A stretch of DNA of 64,000 nucleotides from a virus (IMGVR_UViG_3300043438_001962), one strand, 5' to 3'. Counted from the first letter of the stretch, positions 4,462 to 53,494 are shown. Notes: generated by a model not told the origin, from the sequence alone. Translations and numbers: made by a program.

Positions 4462-6831
4462 ATGGATTTATTCAATCCCCCCATAGAATTTAATTACACA
4501 ATAATGATAAAAGATTTAGATATCACAAGTTTTGATAATCCTTACCTACAGATTGTATGGGAGGACTATGCTGAAAACTTTACACAAGAAAAAATAAAAA
4601 GTGTTCGTCATTACTTTCAAAAGAAGTACAACACAACCAATGTTAATGTTATTACAAAGACAAAGGTTGCTGACGACACCACACATACCGTAGACATATC
4701 CTTTAACATCTTGGATGAGAACTATCAATTAGAATTAGTTCGTTCATTCTTGGAGTCAAAAGGGAATATGGAACACTACGATGATATCTACCAACTTAAT
4801 AGTATTGTGGATAATAAATTGTTACAAACTCAAACTGATGCGGCTCCATTTAAGAGATGGTATATTAAGAACATTGAGTTCTCAAACTTTTTATCCTATG
4901 GTGAGAATCAGAAGATAGATTTTGAGAAGTGTGATGGGATTACGGTTGTGGAATCAAACCCGCCTAACTTTGGGGGTAAGACAGTTTTGACTGTGGATTT
5001 ATTGATGTTCTTATTCTTTAATGAGACAACCAAGACATCCAAAGCGGAGGAAATATTTAACAGGTTTACAGAAAGAAACAAAGTTGCCGTAAAAGGTGAG
5101 ATAACAATCGATGGTGAGGAGTACATCATATTGAGAAATATTGAGAGAAAGTTATCAAAGAAAAATGAATGGAACGTTAAAACCGAGTTGGACTTTTATA
5201 AAAGATTGTCTGATGGTAGTTTACAAAACTTCACCGGAGAACAACGAAGAGAGACCGAGGCGTTTATCAAAACGTCTATCGGAACCAAAGAGGACTTCTT
5301 AATGACCATTCTAACAACTGCCACCAACTTGGAGGAACTAATTGATGCCAAACCTACGGCGAGGGGTCAAGTTCTTTCAAGGTTTATGGGGTTAGATTTT
5401 CTTAAACGTAAGGAAGAAGCCGCCAAAGAAATTTATAGTGACTTCTCAAAAGGGATGTTATCGAACATCTATAACTCGGAACAACTTAAAACTGACAACC
5501 AAACTAATCAAGAAACCATTGATACCCTAACGGAAACTAATCTTACGTTAGATACTCAATTGGAAGACGTTAAAGGTAGAATTGTTAAGGGTCAGGAGTA
5601 TCGTGATGGATTATTAAAATCCAAACACAACATTGATAAGGAACTAACACTAGTGTCTCCGGACAAAGTTCAAGAGGAGATTAATGGATTGGATTTACAA
5701 AAGGGTAAAGCCATTTCCGATAGAGATGGGGTTAAGGTTATTGAACCATCTGAATTTTACCACGAGGACAAACACGATGAGGTAAAACAAGAGATTAAGG
5801 ACTTGATTACCAAACAAGCGGAGAACAATGCAAAGATTAAAAGCATCGAAGAACTTAAGAGTTCTGTTGATGGTGGAATCAAATGTGAACATTGTGGTAT
5901 TGAACTGATGAACGCGGCTATAACCAACGCAAAAATTGGTGAACTTGCCGGATTTATCACTCATAAAGACGAATTAGAGGGGTTAATGAGTGAATTAACC
6001 AACAAAGAAGAAGGTTTTGTTAATCTTAAAAAAGAGTTTGATGAGTATGAAAAAAACAAACTTATCAAAGAGAAATATGAATTAAGTGTTGAACGTTTCC
6101 AATTGATGATTGATTCATTGAAAACCAAATTGGAAAGATATTCTGAAGTTCAGGATAAGATTGTGGAAAACAATAAGACTGACGGGTTATTAATTAAAGC
6201 GGGAATCAGAATTGATGAACTTGAGGGTGAGAAGAAAACTATTGAAACTAGTATCTCAAACAATAAGTTCACCATTAAAACTCTAACCGATAAAATTAGT
6301 TCTAATTTGGAAACAATTAGAAAAATAGCGGAAGAGGCTGAAAGAGAAAGAATATACAAAATCTATTTGGAGATATTCGGTAAGAATGGGGTGACTAAAC
6401 TTATAATGAAAACAATGATGCCACTTATTAATAGTGAACTTCAACGATTGTTAGAAGATAGTTGTCACTTCAGATTAGAGGTTAAAATTAATGACAAGAA
6501 TGAGGTTGACTTCCTTATGATTGATAACAATACCCAAGTTGAGAAACCAATGTCTTCCGGTTCAGGATATGAAAGAACAATTGCATCACTAGCGTTAAGA
6601 GCGGTATTAAGTAAGATATGTTCATTACCAAGAGCAAATGTTGTTGTCTTTGATGAGGTTTTTGGAAAGATATCAAACGATAATTTGGAGATGGTATCAG
6701 AGTTCTTCACCAAGATTAAAGAATACTTTGAGAAGATATTTGTAATTACACATAATCCACTAGTGACGAATTGGTCGGATAATGTAGTAAGAATTAGAAA
6801 AGAAGAGAATATAAGTTATGTTTCTCAATAA
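4462..6831 (+). CDS. Rad50/SbcC-family SMC-like ATPase (T4 gp46-like)
   Basis: It has an N-terminal P-loop (NFGGKT), a long coiled coil with a central CxxC zinc hook (CEHCG), a signature-like SSGSGYER motif, a Walker B (VVVFDEVFG) and an H-loop (VITHNP). Confidence 0.85.
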   Translation: MDLFNPPIEFNYTIMIKDLDITSFDNPYLQIVWEDYAENFTQEKIKSVRHYFQKKYNTTNVNVITKTKVADDTTHTVDISFNILDENYQLELVRSFLESKGNMEHYDDIYQLNSIVDNKLLQTQTDAAPFKRWYIKNIEFSNFLSYGENQKIDFEKCDGITVVESNPPNFGGKTVLTVDLLMFLFFNETTKTSKAEEIFNRFTERNKVAVKGEITIDGEEYIILRNIERKLSKKNEWNVKTELDFYKRLSDGSLQNFTGEQRRETEAFIKTSIGTKEDFLMTILTTATNLEELIDAKPTARGQVLSRFMGLDFLKRKEEAAKEIYSDFSKGMLSNIYNSEQLKTDNQTNQETIDTLTETNLTLDTQLEDVKGRIVKGQEYRDGLLKSKHNIDKELTLVSPDKVQEEINGLDLQKGKAISDRDGVKVIEPSEFYHEDKHDEVKQEIKDLITKQAENNAKIKSIEELKSSVDGGIKCEHCGIELMNAAITNAKIGELAGFITHKDELEGLMSELTNKEEGFVNLKKEFDEYEKNKLIKEKYELSVERFQLMIDSLKTKLERYSEVQDKIVENNKTDGLLIKAGIRIDELEGEKKTIETSISNNKFTIKTLTDKISSNLETIRKIAEEAERERIYKIYLEIFGKNGVTKLIMKTMMPLINSELQRLLEDSCHFRLEVKINDKNEVDFLMIDNNTQVEKPMSSGSGYERTIASLALRAVLSKICSLPRANVVVFDEVFGKISNDNLEMVSEFFTKIKEYFEKIFVITHNPLVTNWSDNVVRIRKEENISYVSQ

Positions 6832-6896: not shown

Positions 6897-7487
6897 ATGA
6901 ATTATAAAGAAGTTGAAAATATTTTAAATCAATATAATGATTGGGATATTTTGATAGTTAGTGATGATGGTAGGAGGAATTCTCAAGATAGTGAAGAAGA
7001 GATTTGTAAAAAAATTAATGAAAGATTAAAACTTACTAAAATAAAAACACGCAATAGGGAAGAAAATGATTTATATATTTCAAATGGTGAAGATTTAAAA
7101 TGTGTAGAGCCGGGTAATTTCACGAATACAATTTGTTTTACTAAATTAGCTAAGATGTTAAATTTAGACGGTACAACTAATAAATTGATATCTAAATCGT
7201 ATAAGGATAAAAAAAATAAAAATGAGATTAAATTAGTTAGTGATTATCAAATTGTTTTTTTTAATAAACAAACAAAAAAATTTTTAATTTGTTCTTTAAC
7301 TCAATTACCTTTAGATTGTATAATAGTTAATCCGTCTAATGGAATACAAACTAAAATACCAACAATTTCATTAATTGAAAGAACTAACGAAGAAAAATTT
7401 AATTTAGTTCATAATCTATTTATTGAATATATAAATAAACGAATTTTAAATCCTGCTAAAGAGTGGGAAAATTTAATTAATGGTTAA
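6897..7487 (+). CDS. hypothetical protein in a low-GC cassette; candidate partner (restriction or control component) of the adjacent methyltransferase
   Basis: Its GC content is markedly lower than the flanking genes. It overlaps the downstream MTase by 8 nt. A weak D ... (N/Q)xK pattern is present (VSDYQIVFFNKQTKK). Confidence 0.35.
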   Translation: MNYKEVENILNQYNDWDILIVSDDGRRNSQDSEEEICKKINERLKLTKIKTRNREENDLYISNGEDLKCVEPGNFTNTICFTKLAKMLNLDGTTNKLISKSYKDKKNKNEIKLVSDYQIVFFNKQTKKFLICSLTQLPLDCIIVNPSNGIQTKIPTISLIERTNEEKFNLVHNLFIEYINKRILNPAKEWENLING

Positions 7488-8748
7488 TAATTTAAAAAAA
7501 AGTAGGGGACAATTTTTCACAACAAAAAATAGAGTTTTAAATGTGTTAATTAGTTTAATAAAAAATGATGGTAGTGTATTGGAACCATCTGCGGGTGAGG
7601 GTCATATTGTTTTAGAGATTGAAAAAAAATTAAATAGAAATGTCTTATCAGTGGAGTTAGATGTTGATAAGGTTAATTCTAAAGTATGTAAATCTGAAAT
7701 AAGTGTTGATAATTTTTTTAATTTTATAAAAACTTGTGGAACATTTGATTCAATCGTTGGTAACCCACCTTTTGTTAAACTAAAAAATGTTGAACAAGAC
7801 ACTATTGATTTGTTACCGGAAAAAATTCCTGGTAATGGAAATTTATATTATTTTTTTATTAAGTATTGTGTTAATTTATTATCTGATGGAGGGGAGTTAA
7901 TATTTATTGTTCCGAAAGAATGGTTATATAATGTGAGTTCTAAATTTGTGAGAGAATTTTTAAAAGACAATGGTAATTTTTCACATTTCATTGATTGCGG
8001 TGAAGAAAAATTATTTGATGATGCTGATGTACCTGCCTTATGTATTTTTAGGTATGTTAAAAATTATAGTGGTGATTTTAAATATTATGAAACATTGGAT
8101 GATTATAGTTTAGATAAATTTGTAAATAAAAAAGTAGTATATAATAATACTATTTCTTTTTGTAATGAAATCCGAACAGGAAATACAATTTCTGATTTTT
8201 TTGATGTTAAAGTTGGTTTAGTTACCGGAGCGGAAAAAATATTTAAACTAAATAATAATATTGATTTACCGGATAATTCAATAATTCAAATCATTGGTAC
8301 AAATAAGGAAGTTTCTAATTATCTTTTTGTGGATAATTATGATGTTTTTGGTGAATTATCTGAAGAAGTAAAAAATTATCTTACACCTCATAAAGAAAAA
8401 TTAATTAAAAGAAAAATTAGTAATTTTACTGAAAAAAATTGGTGGAAATATGGTGCTCTCCGTAATTTTAATTTAATGAAATCGAATAAAAAAAGAATTT
8501 ATGGTATTATGAAAACTAGAGATACTCATATTTTTTGGGTAGGAAATGTTAATGAATTTTTTGGTGGTGGTATTATAGGTTTATTTTTAAAAGATAATAT
8601 TGATATAAATTTAGATAACGCGGTGAATTTTTTAAACTCAAATGAGTTTAGAAATATTATGAAAGAAAATAATATGTGTTCAAATAATAAAGTTTCAATT
8701 ACTCCTTCAGTTTTATCTAGTTTACCATTTACAAATTTAGATAATTAA
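7480..8748 (+). CDS. gamma-class N6-adenine DNA methyltransferase (TaqI/Eco57I-like, N6_Mtase family)
   Basis: The motif order is GQFFTT (X), then LEPSAGEGH (I), then VGNPPF (IV). At 422 aa the size is similar to M.TaqI. The gene is extremely AT-rich. Confidence 0.75.
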   Translation: MVNNLKKSRGQFFTTKNRVLNVLISLIKNDGSVLEPSAGEGHIVLEIEKKLNRNVLSVELDVDKVNSKVCKSEISVDNFFNFIKTCGTFDSIVGNPPFVKLKNVEQDTIDLLPEKIPGNGNLYYFFIKYCVNLLSDGGELIFIVPKEWLYNVSSKFVREFLKDNGNFSHFIDCGEEKLFDDADVPALCIFRYVKNYSGDFKYYETLDDYSLDKFVNKKVVYNNTISFCNEIRTGNTISDFFDVKVGLVTGAEKIFKLNNNIDLPDNSIIQIIGTNKEVSNYLFVDNYDVFGELSEEVKNYLTPHKEKLIKRKISNFTEKNWWKYGALRNFNLMKSNKKRIYGIMKTRDTHIFWVGNVNEFFGGGIIGLFLKDNIDINLDNAVNFLNSNEFRNIMKENNMCSNNKVSITPSVLSSLPFTNLDN

Positions 8749-9893: not shown

Positions 9894-10694
9894 ATGAAAG
9901 AAAAAAATTCCGGTATTCCAATTAATCAAGAAGAGATTCAATTATATCTAAAAGATATTCGTAAGATTAAAGTGATGACCCCTGAAAGAGAACGTGAGTT
10001 ATCTAAATTGATTACCTCGGGTACTCTAACAGAGAATGAGATTAAGGCGATTAATAAAGAATTATTAGAAGGTAATTTACGTTTTGTTATTACGGTGGCA
10101 AAACAATATCAAAATCAAGGATTGGATTTCCCTGATTTAATTGCCGAAGGTAATTTAGGTTTAATGAAAGCCATCAACAATTTTGATTGGTCCAAGAATT
10201 TACGTTTTATTTCCTATGCGGTGTGGTGGGTTAAACAATCAATCCTCCAATCGTTGAATGACAACGCCCGTACAATCCGACTACCAGTTAATGTGGTACA
10301 GGATTTACATAGAGCTAAAAAAGAAATTGAATCTAATGGTGGTAAGTTAGATGATAAGTTCCAAAATCTACCTTCAATGATTGATTTAGATATGAATATC
10401 AATGAAGATGGTGATACTCTTGTTGATATTATTAAAAATGAAGGTGCTGATATGCCTGATGAAGCATTTAATGGTAAAGATTTATTAAAAGCAAAATTAA
10501 TCTCTTTATTAAATGTTTTAGATGAACGTGAAAAAGTTATTGTTGAGGACTATTTCGGGTTAACCGGAACACAGAGAACCCTCGAAGATATTGGTGGTGA
10601 TTTTAATCTGACTAAAGAACGGGTTAGACAAATAAAGGAAAAGGCCTTAAGAAAATTAAGGAATGACTGCTCGGTATTGTTTGATTATATGTAA
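9894..10694 (+). CDS. RNA polymerase sigma-70 family sigma factor (regions 2-4)
   Basis: Region 2 reads FVITVAKQYQNQGLDFPDLIAEGNLGLMKAINNFDWSKNLRFISYAVWWVKQSI. Region 4 HTH reads TLEDIGGDFNLTKERVRQIKEKALRKLR. Confidence 0.9.
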   Translation: MKEKNSGIPINQEEIQLYLKDIRKIKVMTPERERELSKLITSGTLTENEIKAINKELLEGNLRFVITVAKQYQNQGLDFPDLIAEGNLGLMKAINNFDWSKNLRFISYAVWWVKQSILQSLNDNARTIRLPVNVVQDLHRAKKEIESNGGKLDDKFQNLPSMIDLDMNINEDGDTLVDIIKNEGADMPDEAFNGKDLLKAKLISLLNVLDEREKVIVEDYFGLTGTQRTLEDIGGDFNLTKERVRQIKEKALRKLRNDCSVLFDYM

Positions 10695-16527: not shown

Positions 16528-16704
16528 ATGGAAACATTAGAACAAATTAAATCTTTAACCGAAGAGTTATCTGTTGATACTTCAAAATTTTTTGGAGGTA
16601 ATAAAAGTGCTGGAACAAGAGCAAGAAAATCTGCACAAGATTTGAAAAAATTATTAGATAGTTTAAGAAAAGAGATTTTATCTGAAAGAAAAAAAGAAGA
16701 GTAA
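16528..16704 (+). CDS. histone H1-like nucleoid protein (Hc1 family), 58 aa, absent from the ORF track (<60 aa)
   Basis: The translation is METLEQIKSLTEELSVDTSKFFGGNKSAGTRARKSAQDLKKLLDSLRKEILSERKKEE. The KF..GNK.AGTR.RK..Q.LK.L motif is typical of Bacteroidetes Hc1-like proteins. Confidence 0.5.
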   Translation: METLEQIKSLTEELSVDTSKFFGGNKSAGTRARKSAQDLKKLLDSLRKEILSERKKEE

Positions 16705-18342: not shown

Positions 18343-19260
18343 ATGGAGAATTTTTATCAAACACTAGGTGTGAATGAAAACGCAACTCAAGATGAGATTA
18401 AGAAAGCATATCGTAAATTAGCGGTAGAACATCATCCGGACAAAGGTGGTAATGAAGATACTTTTAAAAAAATATCACAAGCTTATGATACGGTAGGTGA
18501 CGAAAGTAAACGAAAACAATACGATAACCAAAGAAGTAACCCATTTTCTAATATGGGTGGTGGAGGGTTTAATCCTTTTGAGGATATGTTTCAAAATGGT
18601 TTTTACCAACAAAGAAGAAGGGCGGCTCCTGATAAAATTATTGAAGTTACCGTTGGTGCAATACAATCTTATAATGGTTCAGAAAAAAGTTTTACGTATA
18701 ATAGAAAACATAAATGTGAACCGTGTAATGGTAATGGTGGTGAAAGAATAAATTGTAACTCTTGTGGTGGGGAAGGGTTTATTACACAAAGAGTTGGTTC
18801 AGGGTTATTTGTCCAACTTGTGAGACAAACTTGTAATTCATGTGGTGGTAAAGGATTTTCATATAAAACGGTTTGTGGTTCGTGTAATGGAGAAACAACC
18901 ACTACTAAACCTGAGACAATAACAATTAAACTTCCTCACGGAATAGATGAGGGTCAATTTTTGAAATTGCAAGGTAAAGGTGACTATGTGAATGGTGTTT
19001 ATGGAAATCTAGTAATTAAAGTTAAAGTAACTCCTGAAGATAATTTTGAAAAATCAGGTGATGATTTGATATATAATGCGTATTTTAATTTAGATACTAT
19101 TAGAAATGAAAAGTTAGATATTAAACACCCAAAAGGTACAATGTCTATAAAATTACCTGAAGAATTTGATACAGAAAAACCCCTTCGAGTAAAATCAAAA
19201 GGGTTTCATAATACGGGTGATTTATTCGTTAAGCTACACGTTAAATTTAAACGTAATTAG
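18343..19260 (+). CDS. dnaJ: DnaJ (Hsp40) homologue with a J-domain, G/F-rich linker and four CxxCxGxG zinc-finger repeats
   Basis: It has an HPD motif ([10 protein letters not shown]), a [12 protein letters not shown] linker and the repeats CEPCNGNG / CNSCGGEG / CNSCGGKG / CGSCNGE. Confidence 0.85.
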
Positions 19261-19553
19261 AAAAGATTAATTAGTTCTTTTACTAATTTGATTGTGCCAT
19301 AAATTGATGAGAATAAAACATATGTTGATATAATCACCATAACCCAATGTGATTTAGATAATGACTTACGTTTACATGTTTTACATTCTTTTTTAGGTTG
19401 TTCAGTGATGTCGTAAATAATATCCTTTTCTTCGATAATTTGTCCTTCAAGTTGTTCCATAGTAATATATTTTAAATAAATATAATAAAAAATTTTTGAA
19501 AGAGAAACTTGCTTTTTAACTTTTTATTTCTTATACTTAAAAAAAAGAAAATT

Positions 19554-20402
19554 ATGGCATTATCGTACATCGGAGGTAAATCTAAAATAGGTAAATGGAT
19601 TGTTCCATTTATACCTAACGACATTGAAACATACATTGAACCATTTTCAGGTATGTTTTGGGTATTTTTTAATATGGACTTAACAAAGTACCCAAACTTA
19701 AAGAACGTTGTTTACAACGACTTTAATCCACTAAACTACAATTTATTTCAATGTCTTCATAATCCGGAAAGATTATTAGAAGAAGTGAATAATATTCCTT
19801 GTCAACAAAGGAATGAGTTTCCGACACCGGACATCTATAAAGAACAATTTATCAACTTCCAAGCTGAAATTTTTGACGAGAATTTAAACTTACAGGCTTA
19901 CGATTATGTTATCGCTGCGAAATACGCTTATGTATTATCACAGGTATTCTCGGGGTCTAAACCTGAAACAAGTAATTTTATTGACTTAAAAGGTAAGTAT
20001 AAATCAAAATACCTTACATTCAGAGATAAGTTATCTAAAAAAGATTGGGTTGAACACTTCTTAAAGATTACTCACGTAGAAAATATGGACTTCCAAGACG
20101 TTATCCAAAAATATGATGGGCCATCAACATATGTTTATGCTGACCCCCCATATTGGAAGACAGAGAACTATTACAACAACCACGACTTTGATAGTAAAGA
20201 CCACGAGAGATTGGCTGATTGTCTAAAAGGTATTCAAGGTAAGTTCTCATTATCGTATTACGATTTCCCACAATTACATACTTGGTTTCCACCTCTTCAA
20301 TTTGTTTGGGAGAAGAAAGAGTTCGCTAAGGCGGCCGCTGCGAAGAAAGGTAAGGCACAAAATATGGGGGAAGAACTCCTTATTATGAATTACCAAAAAT
20401 AA
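19554..20402 (+). CDS. Dam-like N6-adenine DNA methyltransferase (MethyltransfD12 family)
   Basis: The N-terminus reads YIGGKSKIGKWIVPFIP ... YIEPFSGMFWVFFNM and the DPPY motif reads YADPPYW. The track start at 19509 is probably an upstream extension. Confidence 0.85.
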   Translation: MALSYIGGKSKIGKWIVPFIPNDIETYIEPFSGMFWVFFNMDLTKYPNLKNVVYNDFNPLNYNLFQCLHNPERLLEEVNNIPCQQRNEFPTPDIYKEQFINFQAEIFDENLNLQAYDYVIAAKYAYVLSQVFSGSKPETSNFIDLKGKYKSKYLTFRDKLSKKDWVEHFLKITHVENMDFQDVIQKYDGPSTYVYADPPYWKTENYYNNHDFDSKDHERLADCLKGIQGKFSLSYYDFPQLHTWFPPLQFVWEKKEFAKAAAAKKGKAQNMGEELLIMNYQK

Positions 20403-24314: not shown

Positions 24315-24638
24315 ATGGAAATTACACAAGAATTATTACAAGAAAAAATTAACAATGGTGAAAAATTAGTGGTTGACTTTTGGGCTCCATGGTGTGGACC
24401 TTGTAAAGTTATGAAACCGGCTTTTGAAAAAGTTTCTGAAGAATTTAGAAACGAAAACTCTGAAGTTCAATTGTTCACCTTAAATGTTGAAGAAAATAAA
24501 GAGTTTGCTGCTTCATTAGGTATTAGAGCAATTCCTACGGTTAAATCATTTTCAGATGGTAAAGAAGTTTATTCTCAACCGGGAATGCAAATGGAAAGTC
24601 AAATTAAACAATTAGTGACTAACCTAATCAATGGATAA
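24315..24638 (+). CDS. trx: thioredoxin
   Basis: The WAPWCGPCK active site is present and the length is 107 aa. Confidence 0.85.
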   Translation: MEITQELLQEKINNGEKLVVDFWAPWCGPCKVMKPAFEKVSEEFRNENSEVQLFTLNVEENKEFAASLGIRAIPTVKSFSDGKEVYSQPGMQMESQIKQLVTNLING

Positions 24639-29194: not shown

Positions 29195-29767
29195 ATGGCA
29201 AATGTAATGACAACATATGTTAAGATTGTTAATCTTAACGAAGAAACGTTTTTAAAATTTAGTGATTTATTTAAAACTGAAAATGACAATAGTTCTTATG
29301 TAGAATTAGTAAATCATTTTAATAAATTATTTGATGAGAAATTTAGTGAACCGGATAATGTTATGGACCGAGAATGGATGGAACAAAACATTGGTTCAAA
29401 GTGGATTACCGTTGAATTTGGTGATGATGGATACACACCTGAAGTTGATGTGATAATCGAAAGTGCTTGGAGTGTTCCTACGGAATATATTCAAAAAGTG
29501 GTTGAGGTTTTAAATCGGATGGATAAAGATATTGTAGCTTATGGTACATACGAAGATGAAGGATTTTCACCTATCGGTGCGTTTGTTTACGGATATGATT
29601 ATGATGATATTGAAGATTACGATGAAGAAGTTGATTTTGATGAAATGATGAATGACGACGAGTATCATGAAAAAACGTATGATGAACTATATTCATTAAG
29701 AGATAGTTTATATAATTCATATCTTGAAGCAAAAAAAGAAAGAGAAGAAGATGATAGAAACGGGTAA
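29195..29767 (+). CDS. hypothetical acidic protein
   Basis: ORF only. Confidence 0.45.
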   Translation: MANVMTTYVKIVNLNEETFLKFSDLFKTENDNSSYVELVNHFNKLFDEKFSEPDNVMDREWMEQNIGSKWITVEFGDDGYTPEVDVIIESAWSVPTEYIQKVVEVLNRMDKDIVAYGTYEDEGFSPIGAFVYGYDYDDIEDYDEEVDFDEMMNDDEYHEKTYDELYSLRDSLYNSYLEAKKEREEDDRNG

Positions 29768-30614
29768 GATTATAAATGGAGATTGTGTTGAGGTAATGAA
29801 ATCACTTCCGGATGGATGTATTGATTTACTAGTAACCTCACCACCATACAATGTCAACGTGTCGTATGATGTTTACGATGATGGGCGTTCAATGGACGAG
29901 TATTGGGATTTTACCCGACAATGGTTATCTGAATCATTAAGAATATTGAAAGACGATGGTAGAGTTGCAATCAATGTTCCTATAGAATTAAACGTTCAAG
30001 AAAGAGGGGGAAGAATATTATTCAACGCTGAATTTTGGATAATGATGAAAGAAGTTGGATTCAAATTCTTTGGGATGGTAGATTTAACTGAAGATTCCCC
30101 GCATAGAGTTAGACAAACTGCTTGGGGTAGTTGGATGAGTGCTAGTTGTCCTTATATTTACAACCCAAAGGAGTGTATAATATTGGCTTACAAAAAAACT
30201 AATAAGAAACTGACCAAAGGTGAATCACAATGGAAAGGTGTTCCAACGGATGTTGAGCAACCGGACGGAACAACTAAAAATAAAGTGGTTTATCAGGATG
30301 AGGATAAGAAAGAGTTTATGAATTTAGTATTTGGAAGATGGGAATACTTCGCTGATACCAAATCATTAACAAAGGCGACATTCTCAATGGATATTCCATC
30401 AAAGGCGATTAAGATATTAACTTACAAGAATGATATTGTACTCGACCCTTTTATGGGTAGTGGAACTTCAGCGTTCGCGGCGGAACTATTGGACCGAAGA
30501 TGGTTGGGAATCGAGTTATCACCGGATTATACGGAGATTGCTAGAAAAAGAGTTCAAGCATTAATTGATGAGAGAAGACAAACAAAATTAGAGTTAAAAG
30601 AAGAGGAGGTTTAA
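29751..30614 (+). CDS. beta-class DNA methyltransferase (N6_N4_Mtase family; the SPPY motif suggests N4-cytosine or N6-adenine)
   Basis: The N-terminus reads KIINGDCVEVMKSLPDGCIDLLVTSPPYN (motif IV). The C-terminus reads VLDPFMGSGTSAFAAELLDRRWLGIELSPDY (motif I). Confidence 0.9.
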   Translation: MIETGKIINGDCVEVMKSLPDGCIDLLVTSPPYNVNVSYDVYDDGRSMDEYWDFTRQWLSESLRILKDDGRVAINVPIELNVQERGGRILFNAEFWIMMKEVGFKFFGMVDLTEDSPHRVRQTAWGSWMSASCPYIYNPKECIILAYKKTNKKLTKGESQWKGVPTDVEQPDGTTKNKVVYQDEDKKEFMNLVFGRWEYFADTKSLTKATFSMDIPSKAIKILTYKNDIVLDPFMGSGTSAFAAELLDRRWLGIELSPDYTEIARKRVQALIDERRQTKLELKEEEV

Positions 30615-36165: not shown

Positions 36166-36483
36166 ATGGGTAACGTTATATTGACAGAAAAACAACTTGA
36201 AAAGTTGATTAACAAAATGAAGACCGTTAATGAGAATCATAGTGAAGGTTCTTATATGGCTAAACAACAATTATTTACAATTGCAACATTGGCTCACGCT
36301 ATGTGGGAGAAAATGGAAGATGGTGAACAACTTGAAGATTGGATGGAATCTAAGATATCTCAAGCGGAACAAAGTATTGTAGGAGTTGTTAAAACTTTTA
36401 TGTATGATGAGTTTAAAGACGAATCTAAATCCAATGATGGCATGGGAAAACTTAATTATGATGAAATTATAATAGGTAAATAA
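36166..36483 (+). CDS. hypothetical protein
   Basis: ORF only. Confidence 0.4.
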   Translation: MGNVILTEKQLEKLINKMKTVNENHSEGSYMAKQQLFTIATLAHAMWEKMEDGEQLEDWMESKISQAEQSIVGVVKTFMYDEFKDESKSNDGMGKLNYDEIIIGK

Positions 36484-36505
36484 TAAAATAACTTTTACAT
36501 TTTAC

Positions 36506-36540
36506 AAACCTTTGTTTATTATTAGACAAAGGTTTTTTTT
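36506..36540 (+). terminator. rho-independent terminator abutting the next ATG
   Basis: The hairpin AAACCTTTGT ... ACAAAGGTTT is followed by a T8 run and ends one base before the ATG at 36541. Confidence 0.6.
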
Positions 36541-37455
36541 ATGAGTAGAATTATTGTAACAGGTGGGCTCGGATTTATCGGGTCTGAATTTGTAAATTAT
36601 GTGATGAACAACACAGACCATGAGGTTGTTGTTTTAGATAAAATGACTTACGCGGCTAATATTGATAATATTAAGCAACCATTTCATTTAATAAAAAAAG
36701 ATATTTGTAAAGTAACCCAAGATGATTTAGGTGATTACGATTATATTGTAAATTTCGCAGCTGAAACTCACGTGGATAATTCAATTTTGAATGGGAGACC
36801 ATTTGTTGAAACTAATGTGATGGGAACTTTTAATTTATTAGAATTGGCAAGAAAGAATAATAAGTTAAAAAAGTTTTTACAAATTTCAACAGATGAAGTT
36901 TATGGTGATATGGAAGACAATGATGAGAATAATAGAATCTCTACTGAAGAGTTTCCAATGAAAGCGAGTTCATATTATTCAGCAACTAAAGTATCTTCGG
37001 ATATGTTAGTAATATCGGCAAACAGAACTTACGGTTTACCATACTTAATTACCAGAACTTGTAATAATTTTGGTGAACATCAAAACAACGAAAAGTTTAT
37101 TCCAAAAATTATTTCATCAATTAAGAATGGTGTTGAAGTTCCGGTTTATGGAGATGGTAGTCAGGTTAGAGAGTGGATTCACGCTTCAGACAATGTTAAA
37201 CAAATCTACAAGTTATTAGTTTCGGATGTGGTTAATGAAGTTTATAACATTGGTTCAGGTGAACGTTATCAGAATATTGATATTATTAATATGATTGGTA
37301 ATATTCTTGGGACTGATGTAAAATATAAATTTGTTGAAGATAGATTGGGCCATGACAAACGATATTCTTTAAGTTCAAATAAGTTTAGAAATACATTTGG
37401 TGAATATGAGTGTATTAAATTACATAAATGGTTAGAAGAAATAATTGTTAAGTAA
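36541..37455 (+). CDS. NAD-dependent sugar-nucleotide 4,6-dehydratase (RmlB-like extended SDR)
   Basis: It has a TGGLGFIGS Rossmann motif, a YSATK (YxxxK) catalytic motif and the dehydratase-like REWIHASDN motif. Confidence 0.7.
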   Translation: MSRIIVTGGLGFIGSEFVNYVMNNTDHEVVVLDKMTYAANIDNIKQPFHLIKKDICKVTQDDLGDYDYIVNFAAETHVDNSILNGRPFVETNVMGTFNLLELARKNNKLKKFLQISTDEVYGDMEDNDENNRISTEEFPMKASSYYSATKVSSDMLVISANRTYGLPYLITRTCNNFGEHQNNEKFIPKIISSIKNGVEVPVYGDGSQVREWIHASDNVKQIYKLLVSDVVNEVYNIGSGERYQNIDIINMIGNILGTDVKYKFVEDRLGHDKRYSLSSNKFRNTFGEYECIKLHKWLEEIIVK

Positions 37456-37966
37456 TATGTCAGGAGGTCTATTTACAAGAAAAAAAGTGTTTCCGGATAA
37501 TAGAGGTGTGTTTGCGCCATTATCTTTGAAGGTTGGTGGGTTAGATTGGATTCAGAGTAATATTAGTTTTAATCCAAATAAATTCACTTTAAGAGGTTTA
37601 CACTTCCAAGTTGGAGAGTTTGCTCAAACAAAATTAATCAAAGTTATTAATGGTGAGATTTTAGATTTCATTGTTGATATCCGTGAAGGGTCTGAAAACT
37701 ATATGATGTTGTATATGTATCATATGGAAAGTGGTGACGAATTATTAGTACCAAAAGGTTTTGCTCATGGGTTTATCACTTTGAGAGATAATACGATAGT
37801 TCAATATTTGGTTGATAATGATTACTCACCGGAAAGTGAAGGGTCAATTGTTTGGACCAACTTTGAACAAATTAAAGTTAAGATTGAAAATTTGGTGGGT
37901 AATTTTGATGAGAATGATATAACAATATCGGATAAAGATTTAATTACTAAAAATTTTAAATTATGA
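37445..37966 (+). CDS. dTDP-4-dehydrorhamnose 3,5-epimerase-like cupin (RmlC family)
   Basis: It contains RGLHFQ, KLIKVINGEILDFIVDIREGS and VPKGFAHGF ... Y ... SPESEGSIVW, matching RmlC signature blocks. Confidence 0.7.
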   Translation: MLSNMSGGLFTRKKVFPDNRGVFAPLSLKVGGLDWIQSNISFNPNKFTLRGLHFQVGEFAQTKLIKVINGEILDFIVDIREGSENYMMLYMYHMESGDELLVPKGFAHGFITLRDNTIVQYLVDNDYSPESEGSIVWTNFEQIKVKIENLVGNFDENDITISDKDLITKNFKL

Positions 37967-38124
37967 GTGAAGAAACAAACGAATATGAATTAGATTTGAT
38001 TGATTTGATTAAAAATACTCCAAATGATATGGAGTTAGGTCATAAATTACGTTTATATTATATTAGATACGGAAAAGGTCTTAAGGTTTTAGTAAAGTAG
38101 TATATTTATATATAAAACTTTATT

Positions 38125-38586
38125 ATGGGGGCAAACAATATATTATTAGAAGTTAAGAAAAAAAACTTAATGAGAGAGCAAAAAGAAGATAACGAAACAG
38201 AAGTGAAAGAAACTAAAACCGGTTCAGGGTTTAAAGATATGGTTTCAATCTTACTACACTCACAAACTCAAGTACATATCTTTCATTTACAAACTAAATC
38301 TTATGCTGAACACAAAGCTTTACAAAAATATTATGAAGGTATTGATGCTCTTGTAGATGGGCTTATTGAAAGTTATCAAGGTAAATATGATGTAATCACT
38401 CAATATAATTCTGTTAAAAACGAGGATTATAAAAGTAATGAACAAGTTATTAAATATTTTAAAGCGTTGGACAGTATGATTGAAAAAAATAGAAAAGAAG
38501 TTAAAGAATCTTTCATTCAAAATCAAATTGATACTGTTCAAGAATTGATTAATTCTACAGTATATAAATTAAGATTCTTAAAATAA
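38125..38586 (+). CDS. possible ferritin-like/Dps-like protein
   Basis: The pattern HIFHLQTKSYAEHKALQKYYEGIDALVDGLIE loosely matches the Dps HWNVKG..F..LH..FEE.Y....D..AE block. The match is weak. Confidence 0.3.
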   Translation: MGANNILLEVKKKNLMREQKEDNETEVKETKTGSGFKDMVSILLHSQTQVHIFHLQTKSYAEHKALQKYYEGIDALVDGLIESYQGKYDVITQYNSVKNEDYKSNEQVIKYFKALDSMIEKNRKEVKESFIQNQIDTVQELINSTVYKLRFLK

Positions 38587-48138: not shown

Positions 48139-48146
48139 TATCTTTG
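48139..48146 (+). promoter_or_regulatory. TAnnTTTG -7 element (TATCTTTG)
   Basis: The motif gtTTTATCTTTGccc lies upstream of the ATG at 48153. Confidence 0.4.
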
Positions 48147-48152
48147 CCCTGT

Positions 48153-49019
48153 ATGGCACAAAGAAGTTACGACATAGGAGAAAGATTTGACCGGGGTTAC
48201 TCACGTAATCCTGATTGGAATCGTGATTTTAAGGAAGACCAAGACAGAAGAACGAGAACAATCAATAGAATTTTGGATATCACCGTAAGAGAAAATGTTA
48301 GACAAAACAATACGATGTTATCTGATGTTTATTTTACGAAGTATTGGGGTGTCGGTAATTATTTTTTGGTTTATAGGTTGAAAGATGATTACCAAAGATT
48401 AGAGATACTTATTGGGGCGATTATAGAATCGACCGATGAAGTATTAAATTGGTATGATTTGACAACTCGATTTAATTTTGATATTATTATTGTTACTCCA
48501 TATAGAACTATTGTTAGAAGTTATTTTGATTTATTGTATGAATATCAAACAATGACTACTAGTAGTTACAGAAAAAATCACCCAAGGATTGAAGAATTAA
48601 AAGAATGGTTGGTTAAGACAAGAGATAGACGATATGAAAGGGTAACTCCCAAAGTTGATTTATCAGTTTATACATATACGGATAGAGGTGGTGAACAAAG
48701 AGAATTACTTGAATTAAGAGGAGATATTACACCTCGCGAGATGGAAAGTAGAAGAGAACAAGAAAGATATTTGAACCAACAACGTGGAATACGACCGGGA
48801 CAATATGATGTTGTAATGGGTGCAGAAGTATTTTATCAACAATCGTTACAACAACAAATAATAGAAAGACAGAGAGAATTGTATCAAAATCAAATGTCGT
48901 TACGGATATCTGATTACCCCGAGAGAAGTAATCCCTGTGCTGAGATTGAATTACCAAAAGTAACTGTAACTCAAAGGGTTACTAAATTAAATAAATTATT
49001 AAAAAAATTAAAATTATGA
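48153..49019 (+). CDS. hypothetical R/E-rich protein
   Basis: The start was set at the first ATG, because the track start is a TTG. Confidence 0.45.
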   Translation: MAQRSYDIGERFDRGYSRNPDWNRDFKEDQDRRTRTINRILDITVRENVRQNNTMLSDVYFTKYWGVGNYFLVYRLKDDYQRLEILIGAIIESTDEVLNWYDLTTRFNFDIIIVTPYRTIVRSYFDLLYEYQTMTTSSYRKNHPRIEELKEWLVKTRDRRYERVTPKVDLSVYTYTDRGGEQRELLELRGDITPREMESRREQERYLNQQRGIRPGQYDVVMGAEVFYQQSLQQQIIERQRELYQNQMSLRISDYPERSNPCAEIELPKVTVTQRVTKLNKLLKKLKL

Positions 49020-49600
49020 AAAACATTTTTTTAGATTGTGGAACCCATCTCTGTGAAGGGTTACTCGAATTCCAAGCTAAAGGAGTTATTGATGATACAT
49101 TTGAGATTCATACGTTTGAGGCAAATCCTGAATGTAAAATAGAAGAACGTATAAAGAAAATACCCTTAAATATTACTCCTCATAATGTTGCAGTATGGAT
49201 TGAGGATGGATTTGTATTGTTTAACCAAGAAAATCATAAAAATAGTCGAACAGGTTCCCCAACAGATGGACAATCTGATATAGATGGATGGGCATCTTCA
49301 ATTAATGGAATCGGATTCTACTGGCCAGGTTATGAAACTCAGGTTAAAGTTAAAAGTATCGATTTTAGTAAGTTTGTTTCTGAATTGCCAAAAGATTCAA
49401 ACATAATATGTAAGATGGATATAGAAGGTTCTGAATTCGCTATCTTACGAAAAATGATAGATGAAAAAACAATTACAAATATAAAGGAAATTTACGTTGA
49501 ATTTCATGAACGAGCTATGCCGGCTGAATCAACTGAATCTCGAAAAAAAATAGTTGATGATATTATAAACTTAGGTGTAGTAGTACATGAATGGTTTTAA
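49016..49600 (+). CDS. FkbM-family SAM-dependent methyltransferase
   Basis: An N-terminal FLDCGTHLCEG block and the MDIEGSEFAIL block match FkbM-domain signatures. Confidence 0.5.
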   Translation: MKNIFLDCGTHLCEGLLEFQAKGVIDDTFEIHTFEANPECKIEERIKKIPLNITPHNVAVWIEDGFVLFNQENHKNSRTGSPTDGQSDIDGWASSINGIGFYWPGYETQVKVKSIDFSKFVSELPKDSNIICKMDIEGSEFAILRKMIDEKTITNIKEIYVEFHERAMPAESTESRKKIVDDIINLGVVVHEWF

Positions 49601-50184: not shown

Positions 50185-51021
50185 ATGAGTAGAGGTAAAA
50201 TTATTTTAGTGTTATTAGGGTTAGTGTTCGCAAGTTTATTCTTGGTAAATTCTTGTGAGAGAATTGATGCGGGTCACGTAGGTGTCAAAGTTGATATGTA
50301 CGGAAGTGGTAAAGGGGTGAATGATGTCACCGAGTGTACGGGTGTAGTATTTTATAATCCTATTACTACAAAGATTTATGAGTTTCCAACGTTTATCCAA
50401 CACAAAGAATACAAAGATGATAATTCATTTGTGGTGAATAGTAAGGATGGTTCGGAATTTAGCGTTTCTCCAATTATGAACTATTCAGTACAGAGAGAGA
50501 AAGTTCCGGGAATATTTGCTAAATACAGAAGAAGTTTAGAAGAAATTGAGGAAGGATTCTTAAAGACAGCTGTGTATGACGCATTCCGTTTGGCCACTAA
50601 TAAGTATACTGCTGATGGGTTAATTGGGAATAGAGAAGTGTTTGAAGTTGAAGTTAGACGATTGTTAGAAGGTCAATTACTAAAAGAAGGGTTCGTAATC
50701 AATCAGTTTACATCTAATTTAGTATATCCGGATTCATTCAAGAAAGCGATTAACGCTAAGAACAACGCGGTACAATCGGCATTGATGGCTGAGAACAAAG
50801 TAAAACAGGCTGAAGCTGAGGCAAAAATTAAGGTGGCGACGGCTAATGGTAACGCTGAGGCATTATTGGCAAACGCAAGAGCTGAGGCGGAATCTAACAG
50901 ATTAAGACAACAAACATTAACACCTATGTTGTTACAACAACAATGGATTGAGAAATGGAAAGGTCAAGTACCAACTACACAATTAGGAACTAACACACAA
51001 GTGTTGTACGGATTAAAATAA
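50185..51021 (+). CDS. SPFH/band-7 (stomatin/prohibitin-like) lipoprotein
   Basis: A signal peptide with a lipobox-like LVNSC is followed by a band-7 core and an Ala/Glu-rich AEAEAKIKVATANGNAEALLANARAEAE segment. Confidence 0.55.
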   Translation: MSRGKIILVLLGLVFASLFLVNSCERIDAGHVGVKVDMYGSGKGVNDVTECTGVVFYNPITTKIYEFPTFIQHKEYKDDNSFVVNSKDGSEFSVSPIMNYSVQREKVPGIFAKYRRSLEEIEEGFLKTAVYDAFRLATNKYTADGLIGNREVFEVEVRRLLEGQLLKEGFVINQFTSNLVYPDSFKKAINAKNNAVQSALMAENKVKQAEAEAKIKVATANGNAEALLANARAEAESNRLRQQTLTPMLLQQQWIEKWKGQVPTTQLGTNTQVLYGLK

Positions 51022-51390: not shown

Positions 51391-51417
51391 AACCCTCCAC
51401 ATCGGAGGGTTTTTTTA
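51391..51417. terminator. bidirectional terminator (CCCTCC acatc GGAGGG)
   Basis: The hairpin is flanked by A and T runs between convergent genes. Confidence 0.65.
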
Positions 51418-52005
51418 TTTTACTTTATACTTTGTGAAGTCGGTTGATAATGGTTTTTCATTTTTGAAGTAATATACTTCTGTCTTTCCATCATACTTAA
51501 TTGTTTTTCTATAAGCGGTTGGAACGGTTGCTCCGGATGGAAGTTTAATTGATTTTGGTCCGAAAATACATCTGATTTCAACAACAACTACTTTATTTAT
51601 TTTTGCTAGTTCTCGTTCTCTTACCTCAAGTAATCTCCAAGTAGTTCTGTTAAGGTTTTCTTGTTGTAGTGAGCAATTCAGATAAGTGAATGTTTTATGA
51701 AGAGTTTGTTTATCACAATTAAAGTCGGCAGCAGGTGCAAGATGACCTTTATCGTAAGGGTTTTTCTCGTAGTCACCATTATCGGATGTTTTAATTGAAT
51801 CACACACATAGAAGTCCATTCCGGCTCTTGACGCAGTTCCATTTGGACACTGAACGGTATAACGAATAAATTTAGGTTGTTCCAATTTCTCTGAATATAC
51901 AATCTCAAATATTGGTGTTTTAACCACAATACTATCTCGTAATACTTTTTGTGAGAATGATGTGAATGTGATTAGGGTAAGTAGTAATAATAGAATGTTT
52001 TTCAT
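51415..52005 (-). CDS. secreted non-specific DNA/RNA endonuclease (Serratia-type, DRGH motif)
   Basis: It has the signal peptide MKNILLLLLTLITFTSFSQ and the active-site block YDKGHLAPAADF. Confidence 0.65.
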   Translation of the reverse strand: MKNILLLLLTLITFTSFSQKVLRDSIVVKTPIFEIVYSEKLEQPKFIRYTVQCPNGTASRAGMDFYVCDSIKTSDNGDYEKNPYDKGHLAPAADFNCDKQTLHKTFTYLNCSLQQENLNRTTWRLLEVRERELAKINKVVVVEIRCIFGPKSIKLPSGATVPTAYRKTIKYDGKTEVYYFKNEKPLSTDFTKYKVK

Positions 52006-52010
52006 AAGTA

Positions 52011-52775
52011 ATGTTTAACAATAAATATCCATACCAAAAATTTACTTCCGGTATATTTATAGGTATGAGTTTAAGTAAAGATTTAACAATAGTAATACCC
52101 TGTAAAAACGAGGGGTTAATCATAAAGAAAACTTTGGAGTTAATAAACTTGCAAAGCAATATCAAAGGTGTGAATGTAATGGTTGCCGATTCTTCAACGG
52201 ACGATGGATTCACACAAAAATGTATCCTTAATTCATTTCATAATAATATTAATATAAAGATAGTTAAGGGAGGATTTCCCGCTGAAGCCAGAAACAACGG
52301 AACCAAAAAAATAAAGACACCTTATGTTTTATTTTTGGATGCAGATATTTTCATTAAGGAATTTAGTTTATTGAAAGAAATTGTTGAACAAATGAAAAAA
52401 AATGATTATCATTTATCCACAACTAAAATGAGAACTGACGATGGTCAATACAATTATGTGTATCAATCATTTGATGTTATCCAATACCTGACCAAATTTT
52501 CTACACCCTTTGCGGTCGGAGGATTTATGTTATTTAATTTAGAGGCATTCAATTCATTGGGAGGATTTAATTCGGATGACAAGTTTGCTGAGGATTATCA
52601 TTTAAGTTCAAAGATAAAACCAAATAAGTTTTATGTGGCGGACAAAATTGTTTATACCACATCAAGACGATTCAAGAACAAAGGTTTATTCTATATGGTT
52701 AAGATGATGATTAAATCTTGGGTTAATAGAAACAACGATGAGTTCTTCACAAAGGAACATAATTACTGGACATAA
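52011..52775 (+). CDS. family 2 glycosyltransferase (GT-A fold)
   Basis: It has the TIVIPCKNEG N-terminal block, VMVADSSTDDG, and a DxD in FLDADIF. The alternative start is 52065. Confidence 0.7.
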   Translation: MFNNKYPYQKFTSGIFIGMSLSKDLTIVIPCKNEGLIIKKTLELINLQSNIKGVNVMVADSSTDDGFTQKCILNSFHNNINIKIVKGGFPAEARNNGTKKIKTPYVLFLDADIFIKEFSLLKEIVEQMKKNDYHLSTTKMRTDDGQYNYVYQSFDVIQYLTKFSTPFAVGGFMLFNLEAFNSLGGFNSDDKFAEDYHLSSKIKPNKFYVADKIVYTTSRRFKNKGLFYMVKMMIKSWVNRNNDEFFTKEHNYWT

Positions 52776-53494
52776 TGAAATACAAAACAATAATTCTATC
52801 AGACATTCACTTGGGTTCTAAATCAAGTAGAGCCAACGATGTTATAGAATTTCTTGAAAAAAACACCACAGAGACCTTAATTTTGAATGGGGATATCGTT
52901 GATGGTTGGGCTCTTAAAAGAGGTGGGAAATGGAAGGAAAGTCATACCAAAGTATTGAGAAAGATAATGAAGATGAGTGAGAAAGGTGTGAATGTTATTT
53001 GGCTCAGAGGAAATCACGATGAGTTCCTGAAAGATTTTATTCCATTTCAATTATCCAATCTAACAATCACTGAGGATTATACCTTCACATCCATAGATGG
53101 TCGTAAGATGTATGTGTTTCACGGAGATGTTTTGGATGTATTCATCACCAAAGCAAAATGGTTGGCTCACATTGGTTCAATAGGTTATGACTTAGCATTA
53201 TGGATGAATAGAGTTTATAACAAATATCGTGAGATGAGAGGGTTACCTTATTATTCCATCTCCAAAGATATTAAGAATGGTGTTAAGAAAGCCGTTAACT
53301 TTATTAATGATTTTGAACATAACGCAATACTATTAACTTACAAAAAAGGATGTGATGTTGCCGTATGTGGACACATTCATCAGCCGGAGTTAAAAGATAA
53401 TTATATGAATAGTGGGGATTGGTGTGAGAACTGTACCGCACTTGTTGAAACAAAAAAAGGTAAGTGGGATATTATTGAATTCCATAAAAAATAA
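52775..53494 (+). CDS. calcineurin-like metallophosphoesterase, LpxH-like (UDP-2,3-diacylglucosamine pyrophosphatase family)
   Basis: It contains ILSDIHLGS, ILNGDIVDGW, LRGNHDEF and CGHIH, and overlaps the GT2 stop (ATGA). Confidence 0.55.
   Translation: MKYKTIILSDIHLGSKSSRANDVIEFLEKNTTETLILNGDIVDGWALKRGGKWKESHTKVLRKIMKMSEKGVNVIWLRGNHDEFLKDFIPFQLSNLTITEDYTFTSIDGRKMYVFHGDVLDVFITKAKWLAHIGSIGYDLALWMNRVYNKYREMRGLPYYSISKDIKNGVKKAVNFINDFEHNAILLTYKKGCDVAVCGHIHQPELKDNYMNSGDWCENCTALVETKKGKWDIIEFHKK

Follow-up and report, generated by a model that had tools for sequence, protein, structure and literature searches.

An optional RmlB-RmlC cassette in a lineage of freshwater huge phages that may rely on host RmlA and RmlD

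In this study, we analysed a pair of adjacent plus-strand genes in a 64,000-nucleotide stretch of viral DNA (IMGVR_UViG_3300043438_001962; the whole stretch is referred to here as the window), which a first-pass annotation made from the sequence alone had described as an RmlB-like dTDP-sugar 4,6-dehydratase and an RmlC-like 3,5-epimerase. Matches in Pfam, NCBIfam and the PDB bear out both genes at their original positions (Table 1). We demonstrate that the two genes belong to an optional cassette of ~1.6 kb, made up of a hairpin, RmlB, RmlC and a 45-amino-acid (aa) open reading frame (ORF), and that the cassette is carried by an abundant, uncultured lineage of freshwater huge phages. The reading that we favour, and consider modestly probable, treats the pair as an auxiliary metabolic cassette that depends on the RmlA and RmlD of the host for deoxyhexose supply.

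According to this model, RmlB would convert dTDP-D-glucose to dTDP-4-keto-6-deoxy-D-glucose, and RmlC would epimerise that intermediate at C3 and C5, yielding dTDP-4-keto-6-deoxy-L-mannose. The host would provide dTDP-glucose, through RmlA, and the last 4-reduction, through RmlD or a related reductase, such that, in the infected cell, the cassette would sustain or redirect host flux to dTDP-L-rhamnose or a related 6-deoxy-L-hexose. The most plausible use of the sugar would be in envelope polysaccharide. It had been reasoned earlier that RmlB and RmlC alone would end at a dTDP-4-keto-6-deoxy-hexose; this chemistry is upheld, the predicted product being the L-mannose form.

Table 1. Positions of the cassette, its borders and the more distant genes discussed in the text, counted from the first letter of the window.
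Feature	Position	Strand	Basis or remark
orf105, conserved backbone gene, left border of the slot	36166..36483	+	homologues upstream of the slot
Terminator-like hairpin and T-run, left end of the cassette	36506..36535	+	13-bp stem; T-run reaches the RmlB ATG
RmlB-like dTDP-glucose 4,6-dehydratase, extended SDR	36541..37455	+	304 aa; family, PDB, motif and model evidence
RmlC-like dTDP-4-keto-6-deoxyglucose 3,5-epimerase, cupin	37457..37966	+	169 aa; family, PDB, residue and model evidence
45-aa ORF, right end of the cassette	37963..38100	+	JGI gene call and ORF map; no family match
DUF5856 / phrog_858 gene, conserved backbone, right border of the slot	38125..38586	+	PF19174, phrog_858
FkbM methyltransferase	49016..49600
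GT2	52011..52775
Metallophosphoesterase adjoining GT2	52775..53494

The RmlB-like protein is an extended member of the short-chain dehydrogenase/reductase (SDR) superfamily that matches the Pfam families Epimerase (PF01370, 3e-55) and GDP_Man_Dehyd (7e-51). Its top NCBIfam model is TIGR01181, dTDP-glucose 4,6-dehydratase (2.4e-92, 309.4 bits), and the runner-up family, LegB, reaches merely 115 bits. When the PDB was searched by sequence, all ten of the top ten matches were entries deposited as dTDP-glucose 4,6-dehydratases or putative ones, beginning with 6bi4 (1e-65). The G8xxG11xxG14 Rossmann motif for NAD binding is unchanged across the phage clade and in the RmlB proteins of phages phAPEC8 and PAU, and T117-D118-E119 and Y146xxxK150 do not vary among 16-18 sequences, those of phAPEC8 and PAU included, and line up with the same motifs of 6bi4 and 2hun. 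An AlphaFold2 (AF2) model (pLDDT 83.6) has TM-scores of 0.87-0.91 to solved RmlB structures (2hun, 1kep, 6bi4 and 1keu). The best homologues, together with the cupin RmlC partner, suggest that the enzyme is specific for dTDP-linked substrates.

RmlC probably starts at ATG 37457, the start called by JGI, rather than at TTG 37445, which would give a protein of 173 aa; with this start, the TAA stop of RmlB is followed by one base and then the RmlC ATG, and RmlC is translationally coupled to RmlB. The protein matches Pfam PF00908, dTDP_sugar_isom (8e-38, 130 bits against a cutoff of 27), NCBIfam TIGR01221, rmlC (3e-30), and the RmlC structure 3ryk in the PDB (7e-26). Residues H49, K59, Y117 and D161 are invariant in all 20 of the 20 clade members compared, as are R16, R46 and H104. 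The first four correspond to H63, K73, Y133 and D170 of what we take to be the reference RmlC sequence of S. enterica, equivalences that agree with HMMER alignments, and they are kept in solo and paired RmlC copies alike. The AF2 model (pLDDT 90.8) finds its best Foldseek matches in 3ryk, 6c46 and 1dzr, with mono-epimerases ranked lower, and in the PDB sequence search true RmlCs score 72-94 bits whereas the mono-epimerases EvaD, NovW and ChmJ score at most 41 bits, a gap that is suggestive of double epimerisation at C3 and C5. The residues that the first-pass annotation had singled out for checking, YxxxK of RmlB and the His/Tyr dyad of RmlC, are thus all intact in alignments of the clade and the reference enzymes, and both proteins are predicted, from their sequences and models, to be catalytically competent.

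Both genes are under purifying selection, with dN/dS of ~0.07-0.18. By the Nei-Gojobori method, RmlB gives 0.075 against a 90%-identical relative and ranges over 0.07-0.14, and RmlC ranges over 0.11-0.18; distant pairs give 0.11-0.18, with dS near saturation. These values bear on the possibility that the genes are decaying or neutral hitchhikers of no use to the phage. Their patchy presence among close relatives is what such a history would leave, but the low ratios speak against it, as do catalytic residues that are invariant in lineages diverged to 53-69% identity, ORFs that are both intact and translationally coupled, and the many closely related RmlB and RmlC variants present in metagenome protein collections. 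We therefore regard neutral hitchhiking as very improbable.

That the pair is optional emerges from a comparison of related viral loci, 80 of which were taken from more than 598 matches to an anchor, a conserved 467-aa gene 3.5 kb upstream. In these anchor-selected loci, we examined the content of the slot flanked by orf105 and the DUF5856 gene. Twenty slots hold no rml gene, some of them carrying unrelated cargo such as 478-aa or 631-aa proteins, 3 hold RmlC only, 12 hold RmlB and RmlC, and in a further 3 RmlB is present and the contig end cuts the slot. Among the nearest relatives (anchor identity of at least 87%), 12 slots lack an rml gene versus only 2 with RmlB. The collinear loci L090 and L094, at 92-98% identity, are set apart by an 863-bp RmlB indel, which directly follows a terminator-like hairpin. 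RmlC homologues that occur without RmlB (58-65% identity) were also seen on a 276-kb contig, where the slot is the same, on a 109-kb contig, where a GT2 gene precedes RmlC, and in a T4-like phage. From the slot states, the indel and the solo RmlC genes, we therefore conclude that RmlB and RmlC are accessory cargo and that each gene is gained and lost separately. The solo copies have varied surroundings (L129 8666-10531, L130 1-10528 and L128 10001-11448); the one that directly follows GT2 (L129) is also near a TOD1_MUCI70-like gene, and the one in the T4-like phage adjoins an IMPDH-like gene, with QueC, GATase and DUF366 genes, which are of 7-deazaguanine type, a few kb away.

The insertion boundaries of the cassette are clean at both edges. 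In nearly all related loci, regardless of cargo, a homologue of orf105 (57-96% identity) directly precedes the slot, and alignment places the start of the insert right after the orf105 stop codon. At the right edge, the leader of the DUF5856 gene, TATATTTATATrTAAAACTTTATTATGGG, is common to the window and to relatives with empty slots, and the cassette ends just before it; most relatives have a different ORF, of 85-95 aa, just before DUF5856 in place of the window's 45-aa ORF. A hairpin of different sequence occupies the left site in L094 (~7036-7075) and L090 (~4926-4970), where it forms the left breakpoint of the RmlB indel, and the hairpin stays in distant relatives that lack RmlB. It may terminate orf105 transcription, or have a part in recombination or regulation. 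A promoter scan found 24 candidates versus 19.5 expected from shuffled sequence, which is not above expectation.

The slot itself (36484-38124) is hypervariable and a general cargo hotspot. Unrelated inserts include the 631-aa protein, the 478-aa protein with several small ORFs, and an ORF of 146-153 aa (L078 7932-9827, L079 15315-18217 and L125 13484-13924). The junction between RmlB and RmlC is also variable, since a small ORF separates the two in some relatives; it encodes 73 aa in L091 (15768-15989) and L110 (15196-15417), and is conserved between both. In L094 (7965-8426) and L090, the ORF at this junction encodes 153 aa.

The absence of RmlA and RmlD from the window, also reported in the first-pass annotation, holds for a larger region. 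The window spans ~84.8-148.8 kb of JGI contig Ga0334995_0000026 (149,869 bp), and with its surroundings ~84 kb of this phage was covered. Precomputed Pfam calls for ~4.6-63.5 kb of the window and for both 10-kb flanks include no NTP_transferase, the family of RmlA, and no second SDR, which leaves RmlB as the sole SDR in the region. The RmlA proteins of phAPEC8 and PAU, used as tblastn probes, gave no match in the window or in ~100 related loci, and the RmlD proteins of the same phages gave only a cross-match to RmlB in the window and in the ~100 related loci within 10 kb of the slot. A neighbouring 313-aa gene and the DUF5856 gene were considered as a cryptic reductase and rejected: relatives that lack rml genes have both, no family matches the 313-aa protein, and the DUF5856 protein matches non-SDR families only.

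Several points weigh against dependence on the host. The genome of this phage is probably at least 208 kb (208-217 kb), and a distant RmlA, RmlD, reductase or aminotransferase could lie in the ~130 kb beyond the reach of our searches. We infer the reliance of the phage on host RmlA and RmlD. Moreover, RmlD normally pulls the equilibrium, and it is not obvious that additional RmlC by itself would increase flux. The enzymes themselves also depart from the canonical pattern. Because both score under the strict NCBIfam equivalog cutoffs (309.4 vs 365.1 bits for TIGR01181 and 105.2 vs 155.75 bits for TIGR01221), they are divergent members of their families. The C-terminus of RmlB is ~25-50 residues shorter than in characterised RmlBs, and the whole phage RmlC clade has Pro at residue ~21, where cellular RmlCs have Glu29, a residue of the N-terminal strand that is conserved in the RmlCs of S. 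enterica, B. anthracis, phAPEC8 and PAU. The change from Glu to Pro might affect nucleotide binding and, given this substitution and the short RmlB, the substrate specificity of the pair could differ from the canonical one.

One possible consequence is that the pair acts on another substrate, or by other chemistry, than canonical RmlB and RmlC, and hence makes another sugar. The dehydratase could use UDP-glucose, as mimivirus R141 does, or be an NDP-glucuronate decarboxylase like EvdS6, and RmlC could be a mono-epimerase of the ChmJ, EvaD or NovW kind. In addition to the sub-cutoff scores, the shortened C-terminus and the substitution in the nucleotide-binding strand, this idea draws support from R141 (6vlo) and EvdS6 (8shh), which are both within the top 15 sequence and structural matches of RmlB. 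It is doubtful, however, given that authentic dTDP-glucose dehydratases and 3,5-epimerases are the best matches by a wide margin, with mono-epimerases at no more than 41 bits against 94, and that all three residues of the Thr-Asp-Glu dehydratase triad are kept. In addition, it is the dTDP route, and not the UDP route, that typically has a cupin RmlC as partner.

The lineage that carries the cassette offers some guidance on the host. An RmlB identical to that of the window is also encoded on contigs of which the longest has 215,582 bp, viral contigs with close relatives of window genes measure 208-425 kb, and the sole matches of the window's backbone proteins in the phage database are metagenomic huge phages of 634-735 kb (Mahaphage clade). 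Bacteroidetes are the predicted hosts of Mahaphage-clade huge phages (PMC7162821, Al-Shayeb et al. 2020), and huge phages of freshwater Bacteroidetes, with genomes of 293-331 kb and 27-34% GC, carry many sugar and lipopolysaccharide (LPS) genes, which were read as a means of surface remodelling (PMC9723584, Chen et al. 2022). A Bacteroidota host, which these relatives suggest, would be consistent with the ~30% GC of our sequence and with the lack of a Shine-Dalgarno sequence ahead of RmlB. The genomes of Chen et al. 2022 and of the Mahaphage clade resemble the window lineage in being freshwater, ~27-34% GC, 200-330 kb or more in size and rich in sugar and LPS genes, a resemblance by which sameness of lineage is unproven. 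In one genome of Chen et al. 2022, Ga0209500_10000006, a solo RmlC is flanked by unannotated genes, and the order of sigma factor, DnaJ and thioredoxin genes is that of the window. A scan of JGI metagenome contigs with a solo RmlC, meant to tie the lineage to that genome, returned one unrelated 11.7-kb contig and the link is unproven. Comparison of RmlB with 185,579 species genomes found no close relative (the best, at 40% identity, is from an uncultured metagenome-assembled genome) and gave no indication of the host or of the origin of the gene; the region, compared by megablast with 50,697 phage records, gave no match, and the window contains no tRNAs.

Dependence on host RmlA and RmlD is nevertheless in keeping with how the cassette varies. 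That RmlC occurs alone, and that RmlB is an indel in otherwise matching loci, suggests that single steps are useful on their own, and the host would therefore have to supply the remaining enzymes. In Bacteroidota, rfb genes are found as singlets and doublets (PMC11164228), which fits modular complementation of this kind. A different role for the phage RmlC clade, with or without RmlB, would be that of a branch-point diverter of the host pool of dTDP-4-keto-6-deoxy-D-glucose, which would either re-route or starve synthesis of the host surface glycan, with receptor editing or superinfection exclusion as the outcome, or feed a 4-keto-L-sugar into an unrecognised phage glycosylation. We consider this role rather improbable. 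If it were true, the fragmented rfb complement of particular Bacteroidota host strains would be what the state of the cassette (none, C, or B+C) is tuned to.

The first-pass annotation went further, and joined RmlB and RmlC with the GT2, the FkbM methyltransferase and an "LpxH-like" hydrolase into a phage glycan module. Comparison with relatives, in which its components are not co-inherited, gives no support to this grouping. The GT2 and the adjoining phosphoesterase are found, at 63-98% identity, at all 12 of the relatives' loci compared, and 5 of these contigs lack RmlB and RmlC. FkbM, on the other hand, has no homologue at any of the 12 GT2 loci, nor in the corresponding downstream flank of RmlB/C-positive relatives such as L012, and is another lineage-specific accessory gene. 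The three genes are 11-15 kb from RmlB and RmlC, with unrelated genes between. As for the hydrolase, its scores against LpxH models are far below their cutoffs (49.6 vs 134 bits for NF003743 and 37.4 vs 190 bits for TIGR01854), and the protein has a generic calcineurin-type Metallophos domain. It is 91-98% identical in relatives and more conserved than its GT2 neighbour. Also near GT2 are genes for a Band_7/SPFH protein (50185-51021) and an Endonuclease_NS nuclease (51415-52005, minus strand), and a 288-aa ORF upstream of FkbM (48144-49019) has homologues in relatives at 28-56% identity.

Apart from a fixed module, the pair could still feed a phage-specific glycosylation, in which a phage glycosyltransferase would put the 4-keto-L-sugar, or a derivative that an unseen phage reductase or aminotransferase makes from it, on virion proteins or on a phage-directed glycan, perhaps with O-methylation by FkbM. 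The window does encode a GT2 and an FkbM protein, the solo RmlC of L129 directly follows a GT2 gene, and in cyanophage RB11-B an RmlC-like gene is part of a large cluster of SDR, FkbM, glycosyltransferase and DegT genes. Related freshwater huge phages often carry DegT aminotransferases (PMC9723584), and the ~130 kb of genome outside our coverage could hold further enzymes. Yet the same comparisons that leave the module unsupported tell against this use of the sugar: contigs without the pair still have conserved GT2 and phosphoesterase genes, FkbM is confined to this lineage, and the genes between are unrelated. In addition, no reductase or aminotransferase turned up in the 84 kb, and most close relatives have no such cassette. 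We judge phage-specific glycosylation to be unlikely.

Among the uses proposed earlier for an unusual deoxysugar, a role in the host surface glycan is plausible; DNA hypermodification, here meaning base glycosylation of phage DNA with the product, fared worse, as we saw no gene to support it and the pair is dispensable. An obligatory phage-specific pathway of this sort is unlikely because most close relatives lack the pair and RmlC is often present where RmlB is not; a genome-wide modification would not be expected to be missing from most near-identical phages. No hydroxymethylase, thymidylate-synthase-like gene or DNA glycosyltransferase was found in the 84 kb, and the window has three DNA methyltransferases instead. 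To our knowledge, no dTDP-sugar-dependent glycosylation of DNA has been described. Nothing direct speaks for this use, other than that huge phages often modify their DNA and that the enzymes could sit in the unseen part of the genome, and we hold it to be extremely unlikely. The three methyltransferase genes are Eco57I-like (7480-8748), Dam/MethyltransfD12 (19509-20402) and N6_N4_Mtase (29724-30614), and their presence within 64 kb suggests methylation-based protection of phage DNA.

The phage proteins share folds, cofactor and motifs with bacterial RmlB (EC 4.2.1.46) and RmlC (EC 5.1.3.13), such as 6bi4, 1keu, 3ryk and 1dzr (34-39% identity, TM-scores 0.74-0.91), and their genes are likewise adjacent and translationally coupled. 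Unlike the bacterial enzymes, they are phage-encoded without RmlA or RmlD nearby, and have the short RmlB C-terminus and the Pro in place of Glu29 in RmlC. In the lytic, ~150-kb Stephanstirmvirinae coliphages phAPEC8 and PHB05 (phi92-like), annotated homologues of RmlB (44% identity; phrog_540) and RmlC (33%; phrog_8784) are encoded in an early or metabolic region; there, a contiguous rmlB-A-C-D set lies beside ribonucleotide reductase and thymidylate synthase genes, whereas the window has B and C only, and these are optional. The Sphingomonas jumbo phage PAU has B directly followed by C, as in the window, and its RmlC ranks among the best annotated phage matches (35% identity over 98% of the query); unlike in the window, rmlA is immediately downstream, and the next gene, gp188, is unannotated. 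Giant viruses of eukaryotes also encode a partial 6-deoxyhexose pathway, as in mimivirus R141 and the UDP-glucose 4,6-dehydratase of chloroviruses, with the rest coming from the host or from other enzymes. Their enzymes differ in using UDP-glucose and a fused SDR epimerase/reductase with no cupin RmlC, and function in the glycosylation of capsids or fibrils, the hosts being eukaryotes; R141 (6vlo) is nevertheless among the top structural matches of our RmlB model.

Full or partial rml sets have been listed as auxiliary genes in virome papers (PMC8224337, PMC12911398), and in PMC9723584 RmlB and RmlC appear in a supplementary table only and are absent from the discussion. A further paper, PMC12837969, was considered as a case of phage rfb genes and rejected, the rfbB and rfbC listed there being those of the host bacterium. 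Our literature searches turned up no work on the function of a phage RmlB or RmlC. Catalogues already include phage rml genes (phrog_540 and phrog_8784), and those of the window are an ordinary example of phage borrowing of host sugar-pathway genes, with no new glycan system. What sets this locus apart is the three-state optional cassette (none, C, or B+C) in an abundant huge-phage lineage. Nucleotide-sugar genes of phages are widely listed as auxiliary metabolic genes and almost never tested, and near-isogenic huge phages that carry none, RmlC, or RmlB and RmlC in one slot amount to a natural experiment. Comparison of these states could show which steps of rhamnose synthesis limit phages in freshwater bacteria. 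The value of the locus is ecological and comparative and not mechanistic, as no new enzyme class or pathway is involved.

Elsewhere in the window, there are a small ORF resembling the chlamydial histone-like protein Hc1 (PF07432), a sigma-70 family factor, a full-length DnaJ, and a thioredoxin and a glutaredoxin (~16528-16704, 9894-10694, 18343-19260 and 24315-24638). In the 10 kb upstream of the window start (L004 149-8798), very large minus-strand genes encode proteins of 1724, 739 and 301 aa with no Pfam match, which are probably structural or tail-fibre proteins. They are followed, on the plus strand, by a DnaG-like primase fragment.

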